This document shows positions 5,359-44,717 of a stretch of DNA of 64,000 nt, in pieces; position 1 is the first letter of the stretch, and every line of letters begins with the position of its first letter. Location: sequence record MN850576.1, one strand, 5' to 3'. Source of the stretch: Escherichia phage ime. The notes beneath the pieces are model-generated. The model had not been told where the DNA came from. It searched no databases and saw only the letters and a list, made by a program, of their open reading frames with translations. The position numbers and the translations under genes were made by a program.

Positions 5359-5435
5359 TGGTCTCCACGGAGTGATTCGAACACTCGACCTCCTGATCCC
5401 AAATCAGGCGCTCTACCAAGCTGAGCTACGCGGAG
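5359..5435 (-). tRNA. tRNA-Pro (anticodon TGG)
   Basis: Manual cloverleaf: C1-G72 acceptor (typical of Pro), D-arm TAGCTCAGCTTGGTAGAGC, anticodon stem CCTGA/TCAGG with loop TTTGGGA, T-loop TTCGAAT, encoded CCA. Confidence 0.85.
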
Positions 5436-5446
5436 TATTTATTATT

Positions 5447-5521
5447 TGGTGGCCCTGGGTGGAATTGAACCACCGTCTGGCGATTATGAGTCGCTTGCTT
5501 GAACCTTCCAGCTACAGGGCC
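5447..5521 (-). tRNA. tRNA-Met (anticodon CAT; elongator-type or Ile-CAT not distinguishable)
   Basis: Manual fold: acceptor GGCCCTG/CAGGGCC, anticodon loop CTCATAA, T-arm GGTGG-TTCAATT-CCACC, encoded CCA; G1-C72 pair argues against initiator. Confidence 0.75.
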
Positions 5522-5522
5522 A

Positions 5523-5598
5523 TGGTGCTGATGGCAGGACTTGAACCTGCAACCTATTGATTACAAATCAATTGCACTACCAATTGTGCTACATCAGC
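5523..5598 (-). tRNA. tRNA-Thr (anticodon TGT)
   Basis: Manual fold: acceptor GCTGATG/CATCAGC, D-stem GCAC/GTGC, anticodon stem ATTGA/TCAAT loop TTTGTAA, T-arm GCAGG-TTCAAGT-CCTGC, CCA. Confidence 0.85.
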
Positions 5599-5603
5599 AA
5601 AAA

Positions 5604-5702
5604 GGTGCTAGGTGATGGAATCGAACCACCTATGTATTCAACGACTACCTCGTCTATTTTCAGGATTAAAAATCCTCGCCCTTGCCAAAGGGCTTACCTA
5701 GC
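5604..5702 (-). tRNA. aberrant tRNA-like element (Lys-TTT-like anticodon arm; about 25-nt insertion in variable region); possible pseudo-tRNA
   Basis: Perfect 7-bp acceptor GCTAGGT/ACCTAGC, D-arm GCCC-TTTGGCAA-GGGC, T-arm GGTGG-TTCGATT-CCATC, anticodon arm AGGA-TTTTTAA-TCCT; about 30 nt between anticodon and T arms; CC but no terminal A encoded. Confidence 0.4.
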
Positions 5703-5800
5703 TCAGTATGTTGACCATGTTGCTAGTCGGCGATGACGACTGTAACATTTGATAATCCGGTTCTGCTTCCGGCTTTCGCTTAATTACAAGGTCAACAATA

Positions 5801-5891
5801 TGGCTGAGGGTAATGGAATCGAACCATCATCAAGTCATCCTCAACGGGACGGTTTTCAAGACCGCTTGAGCACCATTGCTCCCTACCCTCA
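5801..5891 (-). tRNA. tRNA-Ser (anticodon TGA), type II with long variable arm
   Basis: Manual fold: acceptor TGAGGGT/ACCCTCA, anticodon stem GCGGT/ACCGT loop CTTGAAA, long variable arm, T-loop TTCGATT, encoded CCA; 91 nt. Confidence 0.8.
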
Positions 5892-6005
5892 TTTATAAAC
5901 AATACTGATAATGACACTGATTTTCGAGCAGTTAGTGACTAGTATAAACGACGATAAATATCAATGCCATTATCTGTATGATTTATGCATTTAAAACTAT
6001 AAATT

Positions 6006-6092
6006 TGGTGGGGAGTGGTGGAGTCGAACCACCCGAGTCGCAATGACAATAGATTTACAGTCTACACCGCTACCCCTACGGGATAACTCCCC
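6006..6092 (-). tRNA. tRNA-Tyr (anticodon GTA), type II
   Basis: Anticodon arm GTAGA-CTGTAAA-TCTAT, variable arm about 15 nt, T-arm GGTGG-TTCGACT-CCACC, acceptor GGGGAGT/ACTCCCC, CCA; resembles bacterial tRNA-Tyr layout. Confidence 0.8.
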
Positions 6093-6096
6093 AATT

Positions 6097-6171
6097 TGGC
6101 ACCCCGTACTGGACTCGAACCAGTGTCAACGGCTTAGAAGGCCGCTGCTTTATCCACTAAGCTAACAGGGC
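6097..6171 (-). tRNA. tRNA-Arg (anticodon TCT)
   Basis: Acceptor GCCCTGT/ACGGGGT (2 G-U pairs), D-stem GCTT/AAGC, anticodon stem GCGGC/GCCGT loop CTTCTAA, T-arm ACTGG-TTCGAGT-CCAGT, CCA. Confidence 0.8.
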
Positions 6172-36683: not shown

Positions 36684-36917
36684 ATGAAAGTTAAATTTCT
36701 TACAGATTTAGGGTACCCTTCCTTGGTTGACTGTGTTGGTAAAATTGTGGAAGCAAAACGGCTATCTGCAAACGAGAATGTTGTCCTGGTTAAAGGGAAT
36801 GATTTACTAGCTGCAGGTGCAGAGTCTGGCAGGATCTCTCCTGATTATATGTATTACCTATCTTTAAGTAATCTGCCAGAGCGAGGCGGTAAAGGCCTTG
36901 AAGTTGTGGAGGAGTGA
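36684..36917 (+). CDS. small acidic protein, paralog family A
   Basis: Strong SD AGGAGG; MKVKFL...VLVKGNDLLAAGAES...LEVVEE shares N-terminal, central VKG-DL-AAGA and acidic C-terminal patterns with 40329, 40546, 42418, 42686. Confidence 0.5.
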   Translation: MKVKFLTDLGYPSLVDCVGKIVEAKRLSANENVVLVKGNDLLAAGAESGRISPDYMYYLSLSNLPERGGKGLEVVEE

Positions 36918-39751: not shown

Positions 39752-40048
39752 ATGAAACTTTTTGAGTGGTTTAAAAAGTTTAAATATAAAGCTGTAGCCA
39801 TCGTGCCGTGGTCCATTCAGTGGGTTGATGAAGGTGGTCTACCGATACCTGGTGACAAAGATACTGGGTACTGGATTATGATGGAGAACGGGTTTGGAAA
39901 GCGAAAGTATACGTGCACAAACTCTACTCGATCTGCACTTAATAGAGTTCCTGGTTACAAACTTATGGTTGTGTGGAAAATGTCAGGCGTGCCTCCAGCC
40001 AATGCTCAATTTCTTACTGACAATCCGACCACGGTAGAGGGAGATTGA
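39752..40048 (+). CDS. hypothetical protein
   Basis: 98-aa ORF. Confidence 0.4.
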   Translation: MKLFEWFKKFKYKAVAIVPWSIQWVDEGGLPIPGDKDTGYWIMMENGFGKRKYTCTNSTRSALNRVPGYKLMVVWKMSGVPPANAQFLTDNPTTVEGD

Positions 40049-40332
40049 TAATGAAAAAGATTAACAGTAGTGAAGTAGAGTTTAAACTTGTCGGAAAAGG
40101 CACTTACTGGGAAGTTCGTCAAAAGGTATATTTGTTCGGTATTATTCCCTACTGGTCTAAATTCTACTGGGGAGCTAACGAGTGGGGAAGATACGCCACC
40201 AAATCAATGGCACTTATTGGTATAGCAGAGTACATTGCAGCCCGAGATAGGGTTGGAACCACTTATTACTACACTGCTGACGATATTCGTAACAGTGTTT
40301 ACATCCCACAACCGCCTGAGGGAGACCGTTGA
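40045..40332 (+). CDS. hypothetical protein
   Basis: 95-aa coupled ORF. Confidence 0.4.
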   Translation: MIMKKINSSEVEFKLVGKGTYWEVRQKVYLFGIIPYWSKFYWGANEWGRYATKSMALIGIAEYIAARDRVGTTYYYTADDIRNSVYIPQPPEGDR

Positions 40333-40556
40333 TGAAAGTTAAAGTTTTAGATTCAAGCTTCTATATTGGTCAGGAGCCCTTAGTGGGGAAAGTGTTTACC
40401 GCTATCCCTAACGAAGATTATCCTGACCTTTTAAAAATAAAAGGTGCAGATCTTATTTCCGCTGGTGCATCTCAGGACTGCTTTGACAGCCAGTGGACCT
40501 ACAACTTTGCCCTTGGTGAGGATGTAGAGATAGTGGAGGACGAGAATGAAGGTTAA
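40329..40556 (+). CDS. small acidic protein, paralog family A
   Basis: MMKVKVLDSSFYIGQEPLVGKV...LLKIKGADLISAGAS...VEIVEDENEG; first gene of duplicated cassette copy 1. Confidence 0.5.
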   Translation: MMKVKVLDSSFYIGQEPLVGKVFTAIPNEDYPDLLKIKGADLISAGASQDCFDSQWTYNFALGEDVEIVEDENEG

Positions 40557-40800
40557 AATTCTTGATTCTAACGTCTACTTGGGACAATCCTTCCTGAAGG
40601 GAAAGGTCGTTCCTGCGGTATACTTTGAAGGGTTGCCGTGGGATGATCCTGTGCGGCAACATCGCAGTTATGTAGGCCACAACGTGGTGTTTATCTTGGG
40701 ATCAGACCTGATCGCTGCTGGTGCACCGGAATATTATTTCGGGGAAGAATCCTATTATGCCTTTGGGGCAGGGTCAGATGCAGAGATTGTAGAGCTGTGA
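40546..40800 (+). CDS. small acidic protein, paralog family A
   Basis: MKVKILDSNVYLGQSFLKGKV...VVFILGSDLIAAGAPE...AEIVEL; second gene of cassette copy 1. Confidence 0.5.
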   Translation: MKVKILDSNVYLGQSFLKGKVVPAVYFEGLPWDDPVRQHRSYVGHNVVFILGSDLIAAGAPEYYFGEESYYAFGAGSDAEIVEL

Positions 40801-40812
40801 TGGGTAACCGTT

Positions 40813-41211
40813 GTGAAAAATAAACTGTTCAAAGTTACAATGAAAATTCGCGGAGCTTGGAGCGTAAAGCAAGGGCGTATCCCAGAATTTGAGAAAGACT
40901 TCTACGTAGTCTCCACCTCGGAGGAGGCTGCATGCTGGCAGGCTGGCTATGCATATGCAAGAACCTGGTACGAAGGATACCAGACTGGTGGCTATGACGG
41001 AGAAATTATCAGCAAGGGTGTAGAAGAAATTAATGTGTTGACAAGTGAAAAAGTTTTTGTTATAGTGCATCCAGATTCCAGAGTGAAGCATTACTGGAAT
41101 GCCAGAACAAAAACTTGGACACCGTTTGCAGATTCTGCTACACCACTTTTAAACCAGAAAGCTCTTGACTCTGTCCCGAGCTATGGGGTTGTTGAAGAAA
41201 AGCTAAACTGA
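40813..41211 (+). CDS. hypothetical protein, paralog family B
   Basis: VFVIVHPDSRVKHYWNARTKTWTPFADSATPLL aligns with 43018 gene (KFVMRHPHSNIAYYWDVLNNEWTPDLQKATVLTPFL); third gene of cassette copy 1. Confidence 0.5.
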   Translation: MKNKLFKVTMKIRGAWSVKQGRIPEFEKDFYVVSTSEEAACWQAGYAYARTWYEGYQTGGYDGEIISKGVEEINVLTSEKVFVIVHPDSRVKHYWNARTKTWTPFADSATPLLNQKALDSVPSYGVVEEKLN

Positions 41212-41228
41212 AACGGTGAGGTACTAAC

Positions 41229-41519
41229 ATGATTGATTTAGTTCTAGACACTGATAACACCGGAGCGTTTAAAAAGGATGGTGTAACAAGCGTTGACCAA
41301 TCATTCCCTGCCAAGATTGACTCAAAATGGACCTACAAGTTTGATGGAGAGATCTTCGCAAATGATGAGAAGGTTGTAGATGCTGCAGCCATTTTGAACG
41401 CTCTAGGGTACGACCCTGTGAATTCTTTGATCAAGGATCCTGTTGAGTTTGCAGAGTATGTTCGAAAAATGGCAGATCTTGCTGTGGATATTTTAAAAAC
41501 TATCGACAACAATCTGTAA
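41229..41519 (+). CDS. hypothetical protein
   Basis: 96-aa ORF. Confidence 0.4.
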   Translation: MIDLVLDTDNTGAFKKDGVTSVDQSFPAKIDSKWTYKFDGEIFANDEKVVDAAAILNALGYDPVNSLIKDPVEFAEYVRKMADLAVDILKTIDNNL

Positions 41520-41524
41520 AAACT

Positions 41525-41553
41525 GTTGACACAACGCTTCAGATTTAGTATCA
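41525..41553 (+). promoter_or_regulatory. sigma70-like promoter (TTGACA-N17-TATCAT)
   Basis: -35 41525-41530, -10 41548-41553; directly upstream of HPF-like gene. Confidence 0.55.
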
Positions 41554-41601
41554 TTGTTTTCAAAGAGGGTTTGGTTCCCTCTTCTTTAAAAGGAACACGT
41601 T

Positions 41602-41919
41602 ATGCAAATTGAAATCACTGGCAACGTAGAAATCACTGAAGGTATGGTGTCTTTCATTTCCCACAAAATGTCTAAGCTGGAGCGTTTGCATCCCTCTGCC
41701 AACTATGCACGTGTGAGTGTAAAAGTTGAAAATGATCACCAGGAAGTTATGGCGTTCATTTTTGACAATTCTGGAAAAGAAGTTATTGCCAAAGCTAAAG
41801 GCAGTGATGCTTACGAGGCAACTGACCGTATGGTAGATGTTGCAGCACGTCAACTGGCTAAATGCGGTGGAAAGAAAGGTAAGGGGAAAGGCAAAGTAAA
41901 GATTGACTTTGGAGAATGA
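41602..41919 (+). CDS. hpf: ribosome hibernation promoting factor / RaiA (YfiA) family homolog
   Basis: MQIEITGNVEITEGMVSFISHKMSKLERL ... VSVKVEND ... AKAKGSDAYEATDRMVDVAARQLAK parallels E. coli HPF/RaiA along its whole length (from memory); own promoter; Lys/Gly-rich tail. Confidence 0.8.
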   Translation: MQIEITGNVEITEGMVSFISHKMSKLERLHPSANYARVSVKVENDHQEVMAFIFDNSGKEVIAKAKGSDAYEATDRMVDVAARQLAKCGGKKGKGKGKVKIDFGE

Positions 41920-41928
41920 GGTGCTACA

Positions 41929-42030
41929 ATGGGTGTGATCAAGAAATTAGTCCCAAATGTAGAGATTGCATGCTTTGAAATTATGTTTGCAATCGCAGTT
42001 GTAGTTAATGTGTTAGGTTACGGCTATTAA
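41929..42030 (+). CDS. hydrophobic micro-peptide, 33 aa
   Basis: ATG 41929 after GAGGTG; MGVIKKLVPNVEIACFEIMFAIAVVVNVLGYGY; below ORF-track cut-off. Confidence 0.3.
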   Translation: MGVIKKLVPNVEIACFEIMFAIAVVVNVLGYGY

Positions 42031-42056
42031 TATCAAATAATTGAGGAGACCTCTAA

Positions 42057-42326
42057 ATGAAAATTAAATTATTCAAAACTGAGCTGGCAGACAAAAACTG
42101 TGGACTGGTTGAAGGTATGATTGTCGAAGCACAACCAGTTGACTATATGAAGGTGGTTCGTGATGCCCTGGGTGAAGGTTTTGATCTGATGGAGCCAGCT
42201 CTGCGAGAAGATGTTATCGAGATGGCTAAAAAGCACACACCTGAAGGCATGGTGGTGTTTGTTGCACCGGGTAACGGAGAAGAGTTGATTGTAACTCCGG
42301 ATGTGTATGAGATTGTAGAGGAATAA
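42057..42326 (+). CDS. small acidic protein (distantly family A-like)
   Basis: MKIKLFKTELADKNCGLVEGMIVEA...EIVEE; N- and C-terminal patterns as in family A. Confidence 0.4.
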   Translation: MKIKLFKTELADKNCGLVEGMIVEAQPVDYMKVVRDALGEGFDLMEPALREDVIEMAKKHTPEGMVVFVAPGNGEELIVTPDVYEIVEE

Positions 42327-42417
42327 TCCTGCTTGGATTAGCATACTTCCTCGATAAGGAAGGTTTGTAATTATTTGTGGGAAAGGAATCCCAATCTCTT
42401 ACCAGAGGTGATACTAT

Positions 42418-42681
42418 ATGATTGTTTATTTTAAAACTTCAGGTGGATACCCTGATTCTCAAAGCTTGATCGGAAAAACGTGCACAGCATACTCACCTCT
42501 TGATGAGGAGGTAGGCGATATTCTACGAAATATGTATCGGATTGATCCTCAAGAAGCTTTTGATCAAAACCTTGTATTTGTCAAGGGCTCAGACATGAAG
42601 TCTTTGGGAGCATTCCCTGAAGCAGATGATGATGCCGTTTATTCGTTCATGACCCCTTTTGAAGCTATGGTTGTTGGGTGA
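42418..42681 (+). CDS. small acidic protein, paralog family A
   Basis: ...YPDSQSLIGKTCTA...LVFVKGSDMKSLGAFPE; first gene of cassette copy 2. Confidence 0.45.
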   Translation: MIVYFKTSGGYPDSQSLIGKTCTAYSPLDEEVGDILRNMYRIDPQEAFDQNLVFVKGSDMKSLGAFPEADDDAVYSFMTPFEAMVVG

Positions 42682-42685
42682 TAAT

Positions 42686-43018
42686 ATGAAAGTACGCTTT
42701 ATTGGTGAAACAATTCCTGTGCATCTCCGGTCGCCTGAGGATTCTGCAGATCTTGCATCTCAAAAGGCGAGAGGTTATGATAAGAAAGTAACCTCAACTG
42801 ATGTAGTGCTTGAGGCTACTAGTCTACCTGACCCTGCTGCATTCTTTAATCATTATGGGTACTATTTCAGCAATCTGATGAATATCGGTGAGCTTGTGTT
42901 TATTAGTGGTGGAGAGATTGTTAGCAAGCTTGGCGGCGATCCGGATGTCTTTCATGAAACCTGTCCTTTTGCATTTGTGGTAGGTTCAGATGTGGAAGTT
43001 ATTGAGGAGGTGCGGTAA
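42686..43018 (+). CDS. small acidic protein, paralog family A
   Basis: MKVRFIGE...LVFISGGEIVSKLGGDPD...VEVIEEVR; start set at Met 42686; second gene of cassette copy 2. Confidence 0.45.
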   Translation: MKVRFIGETIPVHLRSPEDSADLASQKARGYDKKVTSTDVVLEATSLPDPAAFFNHYGYYFSNLMNIGELVFISGGEIVSKLGGDPDVFHETCPFAFVVGSDVEVIEEVR

Positions 43019-43413
43019 TGGTAAGCCTATACCGTGTTGAGTATAGCTCAGATACTGTATACAACGTAAGAAGCAAAGATCGCAGCGACAGAGTGCAAGA
43101 AATGTATGTTCTTGCCGACAGTCCGTTATCTGCAGCGTTCAAGGCAGGGGCTCTTGCATCTCGTTGGAAATTTGAAGGCGGATCTTTCTATGAAGAAACC
43201 CTTGAAGATTCTGTTGTTATTTCTTCTGTAGAGGTTTCAGATGACTACGAAGGGAAAAAGTTCGTAATGCGGCACCCACACAGCAACATTGCGTACTACT
43301 GGGATGTTCTGAACAACGAGTGGACCCCAGATCTTCAGAAGGCTACTGTGCTAACACCGTTTTTGGCAGATAAGTTCCCACCAGAAGGTAATTTATCCGC
43401 ACTGTTTCAGTAA
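43018..43413 (+). CDS. hypothetical protein, paralog family B
   Basis: Paralog of 40813-41211 (shared HP-S---YW------WTP and A-KAG-A--W-EG segments); third gene of cassette copy 2. Confidence 0.5.
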   Translation: MVSLYRVEYSSDTVYNVRSKDRSDRVQEMYVLADSPLSAAFKAGALASRWKFEGGSFYEETLEDSVVISSVEVSDDYEGKKFVMRHPHSNIAYYWDVLNNEWTPDLQKATVLTPFLADKFPPEGNLSALFQ

Positions 43414-43489
43414 TTTTCTTGCACACAGGTGTTGACAACGCCAACCCTGTGTGAAATAATACCTTCATCTTAACAAGACAGGAGACCGA

Positions 43490-43750
43490 TTGATGAAGAT
43501 TAAATTGAAAAACCTTGAAACGGCAGAGATTCAGGACGGTGTTGATTTCCGTTCTAAAGATGGTGACATCTTAGAGGTAAATATTCCAACCTACGAGCTG
43601 ATTAAAGGTTTTGGCAACGTTCCGGAAGAGGATATTACAGAAATTCTTATGATGTTGATTCTTGACGGAACTGTGTTTGTAGGTGAAGGTGAGAACGCTA
43701 TTGCAATCCCAGGCCATTTTTATGAAGTAGTTGACGAAGAGGTGCTGTAA
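43490..43750 (+). CDS. small acidic protein
   Basis: MMKIKLKNLE...EVVDEEVL; preceded by TTGACA-type promoter at about 43432. Confidence 0.4.
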   Translation: MMKIKLKNLETAEIQDGVDFRSKDGDILEVNIPTYELIKGFGNVPEEDITEILMMLILDGTVFVGEGENAIAIPGHFYEVVDEEVL

Positions 43751-44101
43751 ATGAAAGTAGAAATTACCGGTTTTGATGTGAATGTGGTTCCGGAAGATAT
43801 TTTAGCTAAACTTCCAGAAGGTTTTGGTAACGGCGTTGTGGTGGATGCTGTTCCTCCTACCAAAGACATTCTGCTGCAGTATGGTGTAGCAGAGGAAGAT
43901 GTCGATAAAGTTCTTACAATGATGGCAATCGATCGTGTTGTCGTTGTTAAAGGTCTCGATAATTTTGAGAGTGATCCCCTGATTATTCGTGGAGATGACT
44001 ACAAAATCATCGATAATGAAGGCCAAGAGTTCTATGAACCTTGTGCAGAAGATATTCTTAACTTATTACTGGAAGCAGGCACCGAAGAGGAGGACGAATA
44101 A
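43751..44101 (+). CDS. small acidic protein (family A-like)
   Basis: MKVEITG...VVVVKGLDNFESDP...; 116 aa. Confidence 0.4.
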   Translation: MKVEITGFDVNVVPEDILAKLPEGFGNGVVVDAVPPTKDILLQYGVAEEDVDKVLTMMAIDRVVVVKGLDNFESDPLIIRGDDYKIIDNEGQEFYEPCAEDILNLLLEAGTEEEDE

Positions 44102-44430
44102 TGAAGATTGACCCGTTACTGAAGGCTCGTGCAGAAAAAGCGTACACTATTAAGCTGACTAATCTGGTTCCTACTTGTCATCCGGATGTAGGTTGGCCCG
44201 AAGGTCTGGTAGAGGGAACTGTAACAGCTGCATACCTTCCTAACATCAAGTACCTTATGGAGATCTTAGAGATGGATGAGGAAACTGCAGAACAGTTCCA
44301 GTTAGATATGAAACAGAGTGGGACTCTGGTTATTCACGGGTGGTATAATACTAAAGATGCAGAAGACCCTCTGGTAACTTCTAATCTGGCATATGAAATC
44401 TTAGGGCCTTTGAACCTGGAGGAAGACTAA
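44101..44430 (+). CDS. hypothetical acidic protein
   Basis: 109-aa coupled ORF. Confidence 0.4.
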   Translation: MKIDPLLKARAEKAYTIKLTNLVPTCHPDVGWPEGLVEGTVTAAYLPNIKYLMEILEMDEETAEQFQLDMKQSGTLVIHGWYNTKDAEDPLVTSNLAYEILGPLNLEED

Positions 44431-44717
44431 TGAAAGATCTGGTTAAGATTAAGATTAAAGATACCAATGGAGAACTCAGCCATTTTGGAATTAATGATGG
44501 TGACGAGCTGATCGCACACCTGCCTACTAAGGAGGTTGTAAGCAAAGCAGTTGCCGGAGAAGAAGCTGCAATGCAGGCTGCAGGTGTGGATGAAAACTAT
44601 GTAGCTATGTGCATGTGCCGAGATCAGGTTGTTCTGTATAAAGCGTATCGACCAAACGGAGCCACGGAGTGGCTTGTATTCCGACCCGAAGGATATGAAA
44701 TCTTAGAGGCACTATGA
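44430..44717 (+). CDS. hypothetical protein
   Basis: 95-aa coupled ORF. Confidence 0.4.
   Translation: MKDLVKIKIKDTNGELSHFGINDGDELIAHLPTKEVVSKAVAGEEAAMQAAGVDENYVAMCMCRDQVVLYKAYRPNGATEWLVFRPEGYEILEAL

Follow-up and report, generated by a model that had tools for sequence, protein, structure and literature searches.

Large virulent phages such as the T4-like and T5-like phages carry arrays of small paralogous accessory early genes. Still-uncharacterised host-takeover and counter-defence functions reside chiefly in the small early genes of virulent phages, and an expanded set of paralogues is one sign that genes engage host targets. The two small gene families considered here, A and B, are represented in PHROGs by phrog_5009 (A) and phrog_7379 (B), both of 'unknown function'; each B copy aligns with phrog_7379 over its whole length, and the paralogy is already implicit in this clustering. 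PHROGs splits two A genes off into separate groups (Table 1), gives no fold, function or history, and does not include the fifth A gene, the prophage homologue or the clade comparison described below. In the rV5 genome paper paralogues or duplication are nowhere mentioned, and a literature search on the cassette genes found neither functional nor transcriptomic data.

The window, that is the whole stretch of 64,000 nucleotides analysed here (Escherichia phage ime, MN850576.1), belongs to Vequintavirus, being that of an rV5-like E. coli myophage, and shares 99.8% identity with phages naam and RudolfGeigy. The six ORFs of the two cassettes, all on the + strand, are present at the coordinates given in Table 1 (single genes are called below by their first position), and they carry the annotation "hypothetical protein" in 99.8%-identical Vequintavirus genomes. 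As a preliminary description of the sequence had noted, each cassette consists of two A genes followed by a B gene, so that A-A-B is found twice, order and orientation being alike. In the window and in the rest of the RudolfGeigy genome, HMM scans gave exactly five A genes, two B genes and five genes of a further family, A', all at 36.7-44.7 kb. From the sequence comparisons reported here, we conclude that the cassettes consist of old gene copies kept by selection, and that they were probably built stepwise, not by one block copy; the neat-looking 'cassette duplication' falls apart on comparison with relatives.

Table 1. Genes of families A, B and A' and the genes lying between the cassettes
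Feature	Position	Strand	Product and evidence
Family A, fifth member, outside both cassettes	36684-36917	+	77 aa; hmmsearch 7.6e-7
Family A, cassette 1, gene one	40329-40556	+	75 aa counted from TTG 40329; phrog_5009 E=1e-36
Family A, cassette 1, gene two	40546-40800	+	84 aa; phrog_5009 E=4e-32
Family B, copy 1 (B1)	40813-41211	+	132 aa from GTG 40813; phrog_7379 E=5e-74, residues 2-132
o41229, intervening gene	41229-41519	+	96 aa; phrog_12029; restricted to clades I and II
HPF/RaiA-type ribosome hibernation factor homologue	41602-41919	+	PF02482 E=1.8e-12
Family A', one of five	42057-42326	+	immediately upstream of cassette 2
Family A, cassette 2, gene one, diverged	42418-42681	+	87 aa; phrog_13920, also phrog_5009 weakly, E=1e-4
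Family A, cassette 2, gene two, most diverged member	42686-43018	+	110 aa from ATG 42686; phrog_13661
Family B, copy 2 (B2)	43018-43413	+	131 aa, pI 4.7; phrog_7379 E=2e-66
Family A'	43490-43750		profile evidence
Family A'	43751-44101		profile evidence
Family A'	44101-44430		profile evidence
Family A'	44430-44717		profile evidence

B1 and B2 are 28% identical across 119 aa (BLASTP, E=7e-10). The pair had been described as sharing long collinear motifs, and the motifs then named (HP-S, YW, WTP and ATxL) indeed correspond to invariant columns of the alignment, H86-P87-x-S89, Y94-W95, W102-T103-P104 and A109-T110. In the RudolfGeigy annotation, B1 is a shorter ORF starting from ATG 40840; we favour the longer N-terminus, since homology extends into it, the N-terminal strand having its match in B2 and in the homologue of clade III. 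The latter shares 38% identity with B1 and 25-29% with B2. B2 is predicted to be an alpha+beta protein, in which a beta-beta-alpha-beta domain at the N-terminus precedes a small beta-sheet bearing the conserved HPxS...YW...WTP motif. In the Seunavirus phage 4MG, the protein 4MG_194 is marginally like B in its N-terminal domain, with a Foldseek E of 1e-3 and an HMM E of 0.017, and A or A' genes were not found in the 98.5 kb of that phage examined, all outside positions 50,001-100,000.

The closest A pair, 40329/40546, lies within cassette 1 (BLASTP, 41% identity, E=5e-15). Both positional pairs are weak in BLASTP, with E=0.004 for 40329/42418 and E=2e-5 for 40546/42686, the latter with 38% identity over 39 aa of the C-terminal part; in the comparisons of 42686 with 40329 (E=2.5e-5) and with 40546 (E=4e-4) the match is likewise confined to the C-terminal part. 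Leave-one-out HMMs run on 470 window ORFs recovered every A member (40329 at 9e-18, 40546 at 1e-17, 42418 at 2e-6, 42686 at 6e-6 and 36684 at 2e-9). On this sequence evidence, the four cassette A genes and 36684 are homologous. The annotated start of 40329 is ATG 40332, with a GAGGGAGA ribosome-binding site, and its product is acidic (pI 4.05) with a predicted SH3-like beta-barrel. An insertion of about 20 aa separates strands 2 and 3 in 40546; 42686 has N-terminal and central insertions; and these two genes, directly upstream of B1 and B2, both carry an LP..DP-type insertion. The predicted A proteins have a high-confidence common fold, a five-stranded small barrel that superposes on SH3, KOW and PsaE domains; for these sequence families no Pfam match at E<=1, no NCBIfam match and no credible PDB sequence match was obtained with A. 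Family A is predicted to consist of acidic SH3-like beta-barrel proteins.

The weakness of the two positional A pairs, each taken individually, might suggest chance or compositional resemblance, or non-coding ORFs, with no true paralogy. We regard this reading as refuted by the B1/B2 match, by the significant leave-one-out profiles for every A member, by the common predicted fold, by the presence of orthologues in three clades and by selection. Indeed, all six cassette genes have a within-genus pN/pS of 0.06-0.17 (0.14 for 40546, 0.07 for B1, 0.12 for 42418 and 0.08 for 42686); they are under purifying selection, which bears out the retention under selection proposed earlier. The pairwise protein comparison of corresponding members that had been put forward as a check thus agrees with homology for the B pair and, with the profiles, for the A genes. 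The nucleotide divergence of the copies was also confirmed, the best blastn match between cassette 1 and cassette 2 being 26 nt long (E=0.035).

The idea of a segmental duplication fared less well: old paralogy, order and orientation stand, and the three-gene unit is disfavoured. In a neighbour-joining tree of family A, built by this method only from about 70 aligned columns, with moderate bootstrap and with 42418 and 42686 on long branches where long-branch effects are possible, the within-cassette pairs are joined at 67.8% and 66.8%, compared with 5.2% and 7.0% for the positional pairs 40329+42418 and 40546+42686. In the same tree, the cassette-1 A genes fall with the prophage homologue and with 36684, apart from the A genes of cassette 2 (66.8%). 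A single duplication of an A-A-B or a larger A-A-[C-X]-B block would by itself pair the A genes by position; on this reading, later gene conversion between neighbouring copies would account for the likeness of the A genes within a cassette, and lineage-specific losses for the differences among relatives. We hold this alternative to be doubtful. It would explain why order and orientation are alike in both cassettes and why the three pairs are homologous, an arrangement that is not random: by our own count, A-A-B twice under random gene order has p of about 0.001, or about 0.015 when A-A pairs are taken as units. It could also call on the C-terminal match of 40546/42686, their LP..DP-type insertion and the only collinear nucleotide match, which is not significant. 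Homogenisation is mechanistically possible too, since adjacent A copies do recombine: in L025, a 230-bp deletion (window 40473-40702) fuses 40329 with 40546.

The comparison with relatives also argues against a block. We looked at about 16-20 kb around the B gene per locus in clade II (L002, L020 and L021) and in clade III (L009 and L015-L017). Mean orthologue identity is 60.5% between clades I and II, and 45.5% both between I and III and between II and III; clade III, with the lower identity to both others, was taken as the outgroup. Clade II keeps A-A-B2, with a 42418 orthologue at 57% identity; at its other site A-A is followed by an unrelated gene of 96-106 aa, 'C', and there is no B1. In clade III the order is o40045-C-X-B1-like, with neither adjacent A genes nor A pairs, o41229, HPF or cassette 2. 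The only A gene conserved across all three clades is 36684, outside both cassettes (clade II/III orthologues at 66-73% identity). At the loci examined, no pseudogene remnants were found, whether of B1 in clade II or, in clade III, of HPF, the A pair or cassette 2. The cassettes do not come and go as units across relatives. A block duplication has to accommodate an outgroup that has B1 without A genes and without cassette 2, and, in clades II and III alike, a gene C that separates the B1 position from o40045 or A-A; it needs more losses than a stepwise model.

With gains and losses polarised by parsimony and with clade III as an outgroup chosen by overall identity rather than by a rooted genome phylogeny, the clade III order suggests that the A-A-B1 adjacency of the window is most simply secondary, arising via loss of C and X. 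C occupies that interval in clade II as well as in clade III, so that A-A and B1 were probably not neighbours at the time B2 arose. In the stepwise history that we prefer, two families of small cytoplasmic proteins would have been amplified by old local duplications and would then have diverged past nucleotide recognition. These events would have occurred probably on the branch ancestral to clades I and II: an ancestral B1-type gene would have been duplicated to give B2; the A genes at the two sites would have arisen by separate tandem duplications, or come to resemble each other by homogenisation; and the intervening genes C and X would have been lost later in the lineage of the window. The A copies are still recombining at the conserved GxDLIxAGA-coding segment, as the fusion in L025 and the hybrid in L027 (below) indicate. 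Given the repeated A-A-B order, A and B may plausibly have been coupled to some extent as they were duplicated.

Family A is also represented in lambdoid E. coli prophages, by a lone gene that lies between those of the Q antiterminator and the holin. This homologue, P0034 (75 aa, 309 member sequences), is nearest to 36684 among the A genes (46% identity, E=1e-18). In L027, an N-terminus of the prophage type (91% nucleotide identity) is joined to 40329 at the conserved motif, giving a natural hybrid. It could therefore be imagined that the cassettes, or their A genes, came from other phages or prophages by horizontal exchange and that the copies are xenologues: family A is mobile, as its isolated moron-like homologue and the hybrid indicate, and the outgroup clade lacks o41229-HPF, cassette 2 and the A pairs alike, a pattern that one or more insertions could have produced. 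We find this origin unlikely, as no source for B is detectable beyond rV5-like phages. A full HMMER search with the B profile against 1.84 billion representatives gave five real matches, all rV5-like, and three long repetitive proteins judged spurious; a word-indexed homologue search for B gave two clusters only; and by tblastn against 50,697 phage records A, B and HPF were found in Vequintavirus only. Searches with B in Pfam, in NCBIfam and among PDB sequences gave no match. Family B consists of two-domain alpha+beta proteins, present in two copies and confined to rV5-like phages. In addition, composition is uniform throughout 36-46 kb (GC 0.40-0.43), and the cassettes showed no direct repeats at their flanks, no recurring promoter or stem-loop elements and no signature of a mobile element. 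Missing flanking repeats and missing nucleotide or intergenic similarity, being expected after an old event, are by themselves uninformative on the origin of the copies.

The HPF homologue lies between the cassettes, as had been described, together with o41229, a 33-aa ORF and the A' gene at 42057. It scores 48.3 bits against a Pfam gathering cut-off of 23.7, covers profile positions 1-83 of 88, shares 42% identity with a ribosomal subunit interface protein of Salmonella and is preceded by a sigma-70-like promoter (41526-41554). It is found in clades I and II and is absent at the clade III loci. A short DS[QK]WTY[NK]F motif and a 27-nt stretch are common to o41229 and 40329. For family A', an HMM built from 43490, 43751 and 44101 recovers 44430 at 0.0025 and 42057 at 0.01, and an enriched profile separates the five members cleanly. 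A' and A proteins have a common MK[IV]K start and YEIVE end. We rejected A' as part of family A, with an hhalign probability of 46% for the small profiles and of 24% (global) or 4-5% (local) for the enriched ones; A' members appear only as sub-threshold next-best matches to A profiles (E 0.15-0.85). One could read the whole of 40.3-43.4 kb as a translation-takeover module, in which the HPF homologue and proteins with ribosomal-protein-like folds (eL20/LX for B, KOW/L24-type SH3 barrel for A) would bind and reprogram host ribosomes, the duplicated copies targeting different ribosomal states or sites; we judge this highly improbable.

The genes of the region lie on one strand, a promoter scan found sigma-70-like, early-type promoters there, and the region is probably part of an accessory early-gene block of this rV5-like phage. 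In phage EduardKellenberger, isolated on K-12, a deletion running from the glycosidase gene into B1 has removed cassette 1, which indicates that this cassette is dispensable for growth on E. coli K-12. Judging only from genomic position, small size, acidity and fold, we infer that the A and B proteins act early in infection by binding host macromolecules, in host takeover or counter-defence. They do not appear to be obligate partners. For two uncharacterised Vequintavirus families, the analysis provides a predicted fold, a count of the copies, their distribution and signs of selection. As biology the finding is modest, duplication and recombination in an accessory region being an ordinary mechanism.

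The lambdoid prophage morons of the Q-to-lysis interval contain, like the window, a family-A member; however, the prophage A gene is single and without a B neighbour, and no other gene of that interval is common to the window. In its predicted fold, family A resembles the SH3-like small barrels of PsaE, Spt5 KOW, eukaryotic SH3 and the retroviral integrase C-terminal domain. The resemblance of family B to the ribosomal protein eL20/LX and to the PurS-type alpha+beta fold is one of fold only, with 4-18% identity and no sequence-profile match, and the conserved HPxS...YW...WTP half of B has no counterpart in these proteins. On the sequence profiles, B was rejected as a member of the eL20/LX family. 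To our knowledge, eL20 is absent from bacteria. Unlike those of the T4-like and T5-like arrays, the units described here have no flanking repeated promoter or stem-loop elements, and the two families have no relatives in those phages. As in those arrays, the numerous short genes of the locus share one strand and follow sigma-70-type promoters; they are non-essential and lineage-specific, and their copy number is altered by illegitimate or homologous recombination.

We found all six genes of the two cassettes exactly where the preliminary description had placed them when it proposed an old segmental duplication of a three-gene A-A-B cassette bracketing an HPF homologue. As it claimed, the family-B proteins B1 and B2 are homologous (28% identity over 119 residues, E=7e-10, by protein alignment); the motifs it named are invariant columns of this alignment, and each of the two matches phrog_7379 from end to end. 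When the family-A genes were compared by position in the cassette, BLASTP gave weak similarities (E=0.004 and 2e-5), yet homology was borne out by leave-one-out profiles: each gene was recovered from 470 window ORFs with E values of 9e-18 to 6e-6 by profiles built without that gene and its orthologues. A profile search added a fifth member, and an HMM census over the window plus the remainder of one complete genome counted exactly five A and two B genes. At the nucleotide level the cassettes show no detectable similarity (best match 26 nt, E=0.035), and pN/pS within the genus is 0.06-0.17 in all six genes. The bracketed gene is a true member of PF02482 (HPF/RaiA). The paralogy is thus confirmed; it is old and under purifying selection. 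As to the start of B1, GenBank records such as RudolfGeigy use ATG 40840 (123 aa); the PHROG profile and alignment with both B2 and a clade III homologue favour GTG 40813 (132 aa).

Features of the region and of compared loci (positions without prefix refer to the window)
Feature	Position	Remarks
Fifth family-A gene	36684-36917
Cassette 1, A genes	40329-40556, 40546-40800
Cassette 1, B1	40813-41211
HPF homologue	41602-41919
Cassette 2, A genes	42418-42681, 42686-43018
Cassette 2, B2	43018-43413
Family A' genes	42057-42326 and 43490-44717	42057, 43490, 43751, 44101, 44430
sigma-70-type promoter	41526-41554	near-consensus, upstream of HPF gene
sigma-70-type promoter	43432-43460	near-consensus, downstream of cassette 2
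tRNA cluster	5359-6171, - strand	seven genes (Pro, Met, Thr, Ser, Tyr, Arg)
Gene order, clade I	window	o40045-A-A-B1-o41229-HPF-A'-A-A-B2-A'x4
Gene order, clade II	L002, L020, L021	o40045-A-A-C-o41229-HPF-A'-A-A-B2-(P22_Y8K6-like gene)-A'x4
Gene order, clade III	L009, L015-L017	o40045-C-X-B(1-like), then A'(42057)-A'-A'-A'
Phage_P22_Y8K6 gene (PF27050)	L002:11092-11388, L020:4063-4359	clade II, directly after B2; not in window
IS605 OrfB/TnpB-type gene (PF01385 + PF07282)	L009:13532-14644	clade III contig, early region, downstream of o45506 orthologue
Prophage A gene, P0034	L003:10001-10228, L004:10001-10228, L005:371-598	between Q antiterminator and holin
40329/40546 fusion	L025:2501-2713	70 aa
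Hybrid A gene	L027:203-340 and 309-1570; L028
Glycosidase-B1 fusion	L022:3135-3602	EduardKellenberger; annotated as glycosidase only
4MG_194	L024:15924-16481	185-aa hypothetical protein

Diverged rV5-like genomes were obtained from metagenomes via profile searches. Mean identity over 30 orthologue triplets was 60.5% between clades I (the window type) and II, higher than the 45.5% of both I-III and II-III, so that clade III is the outgroup. Across these relatives the A-A-B blocks are not constant, since clade II lacks B1 and clade III lacks cassette 2. No B1 remnant was found at the three clade II loci, where the unrelated gene C encodes 96-106 aa. At the clade III loci o41229, HPF and cassette 2 are all missing, and no A genes adjoin B; the B gene of these loci shares 38% identity with B1 versus 25-29% with B2. 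Judged from gene order, the simplest reading would be an ancestor with a single B1-type gene 3' of C; the A pairs, o41229-HPF and A-A-B2 would then have been gained on the common stem of clades I and II, after which clade II would have lost B1 and clade I would have lost C/X. Because of this last loss, the adjacency of A-A and B1, seen in clade I only, would be secondary.

The closest A pair lies within a cassette (40329/40546, 41% identity, E=5e-15 by BLASTP). A neighbour-joining tree was built from the orthologues of clades I and II together with the 36684 lineage and one prophage homologue. It gave bootstrap values of 67-68% for within-cassette pairs and 5-7% for positional pairs, and placed the cassette-1 A genes in one group (66.8%) with 36684 and the prophage homologue. 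Positional orthology is thus disfavoured, though no more than that, given an alignment of 70 columns and the long branches of 42418 and 42686. The unrooted four-taxon B tree is compatible with early and late duplication alike. By our own count, A-A-B would arise twice by chance in 45 of 45,045 orderings of four A, two B and eight other genes, or in 45 of 2,970 if A-A pairs move as units. Since the repeated order is improbable by chance, some coupling of A and B, or copying of a larger block followed by losses and conversion, is a live rival, although the A genes pair within cassettes and the cassettes are not units in clades II and III. Stepwise assembly accounts for the data better than a three-gene segmental duplication, which is not established; the preliminary interpretation is therefore partly supported, its paralogy standing and its single-block copying not.

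The copies keep recombining, and lineages gain and lose them. Recombination among A copies at a conserved GxDLIxAGA-coding segment is still seen in natural variants. In L025, a 133-kb Vequintavirus contig missing window 40473-40702, the fusion of 40329 and 40546 is a product of unequal recombination; therefore the family-A copy number of cassette 1 varies within the genus. Contigs from two independent metagenome samples (L027, L028) carry a hybrid gene whose 5' half is of the prophage A type (91% nucleotide identity to the prophage loci) and whose 3' half is rV5-type 40329, with the junction at the GADLIxAGA-coding segment; neither source is matched by the 200 nt upstream. Protein P0040 is B1 fused to o41229. 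In EduardKellenberger, a K-12 isolate, a deletion (approximately window 36.9-41.1 kb) has taken out cassette 1 and about a dozen neighbouring early genes, leaving an upstream 'putative glycosidase' gene in an in-frame fusion with the final 33 codons of B1; as this phage is viable, cassette 1 can be dispensed with under laboratory conditions. Separately, o41229 and 40329 have in common a 27-nt stretch (41317-41343 and 40483-40509, 78% identity) and the peptide DS[QK]WTY[NK]F, which may be a recombination remnant with an A gene, or chance.

Family-A proteins are acidic, with pI values of 4.05-5.07. For 40329, an AlphaFold2 model based on an alignment of 23 sequences predicts a barrel of five strands plus a single short helix (pLDDT 90.5). 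The B2 model (pLDDT 77, pTM 0.72) predicts a beta-beta-alpha-beta domain at the N-terminus, plus a small beta-sheet that carries the conserved HPxS...YW...WTP motif. Neither family matched Pfam, NCBIfam or PDB sequences. A structural search of BFVD with family B matched B1 of phage V18 and, at a marginal level, 4MG_194 of Escherichia phage 4MG (Seunavirus), the sole non-Vequintavirus match (Foldseek E 1e-3). In that genome 4MG_194 likewise ranks first with the B profile, though marginally (E 0.017) and confined to the N-terminal domain. Outside rV5-like phages, the only family-A exception is the moron-like P0034 of lambdoid E. coli prophages (75 aa, 309 member sequences, 46% identical to 36684), an isolated gene and the sole one that the Q-holin interval has in common with the window. 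The five small acidic A' proteins start with MK[IV]K and end with YE[IV][IVL]; four of them occur in all three clades, 44101 being absent from clade III. Profile comparisons did not support merging A' into family A, and the A' genes make up a family of their own. Together, A and A' make up 10 of about 16 genes over an 8-kb stretch.

By megablast, 40000-44000 matched 120 phage records, 115 of which cover at least 80% of the query; the best (99.8% identical) are Escherichia phages naam, PMBT16 and RudolfGeigy, all rV5-like Vequintavirus myophages. Eighteen records titled 'Campylobacter phage', with C. jejuni given as host, match E. coli Vequintavirus at 95-100% identity over the region and are probably mislabelled or contaminated. 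RudolfGeigy annotates every gene here as 'hypothetical protein' except one 'ribosome hibernation factor'; in several public records the label 'ATP-dependent protease La type I' is given to the HPF homologue. GC skew puts all genes between about 10 and 47 kb on the + strand. The tRNA cluster includes a 99-nt ARAGORN call (5604-5702), a candidate with a four-base anticodon (atcc).

A promoter scan found several near-consensus sigma-70-type promoters in the region, and promoters of E. coli type, scattered across the genome, are also reported in the rV5 genome paper, which mentions no paralogues or duplications. The cassette proteins are probably expressed early from host-type promoters and would bind host macromolecules, for takeover or counter-defence. 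Since at the cassette-1 position clade II has A without B and clade III has B without A, the two are presumably not an obligate pair. A ribosome-directed role, suggested by HPF and ribosomal-protein-like folds, is very improbable, these folds being generic. The feature is real but ordinary: the paralogue grouping is already partly present in PHROGs, and the region serves as a better-described case of accessory early genes that form paralogous families, in a phage genus already well sampled.
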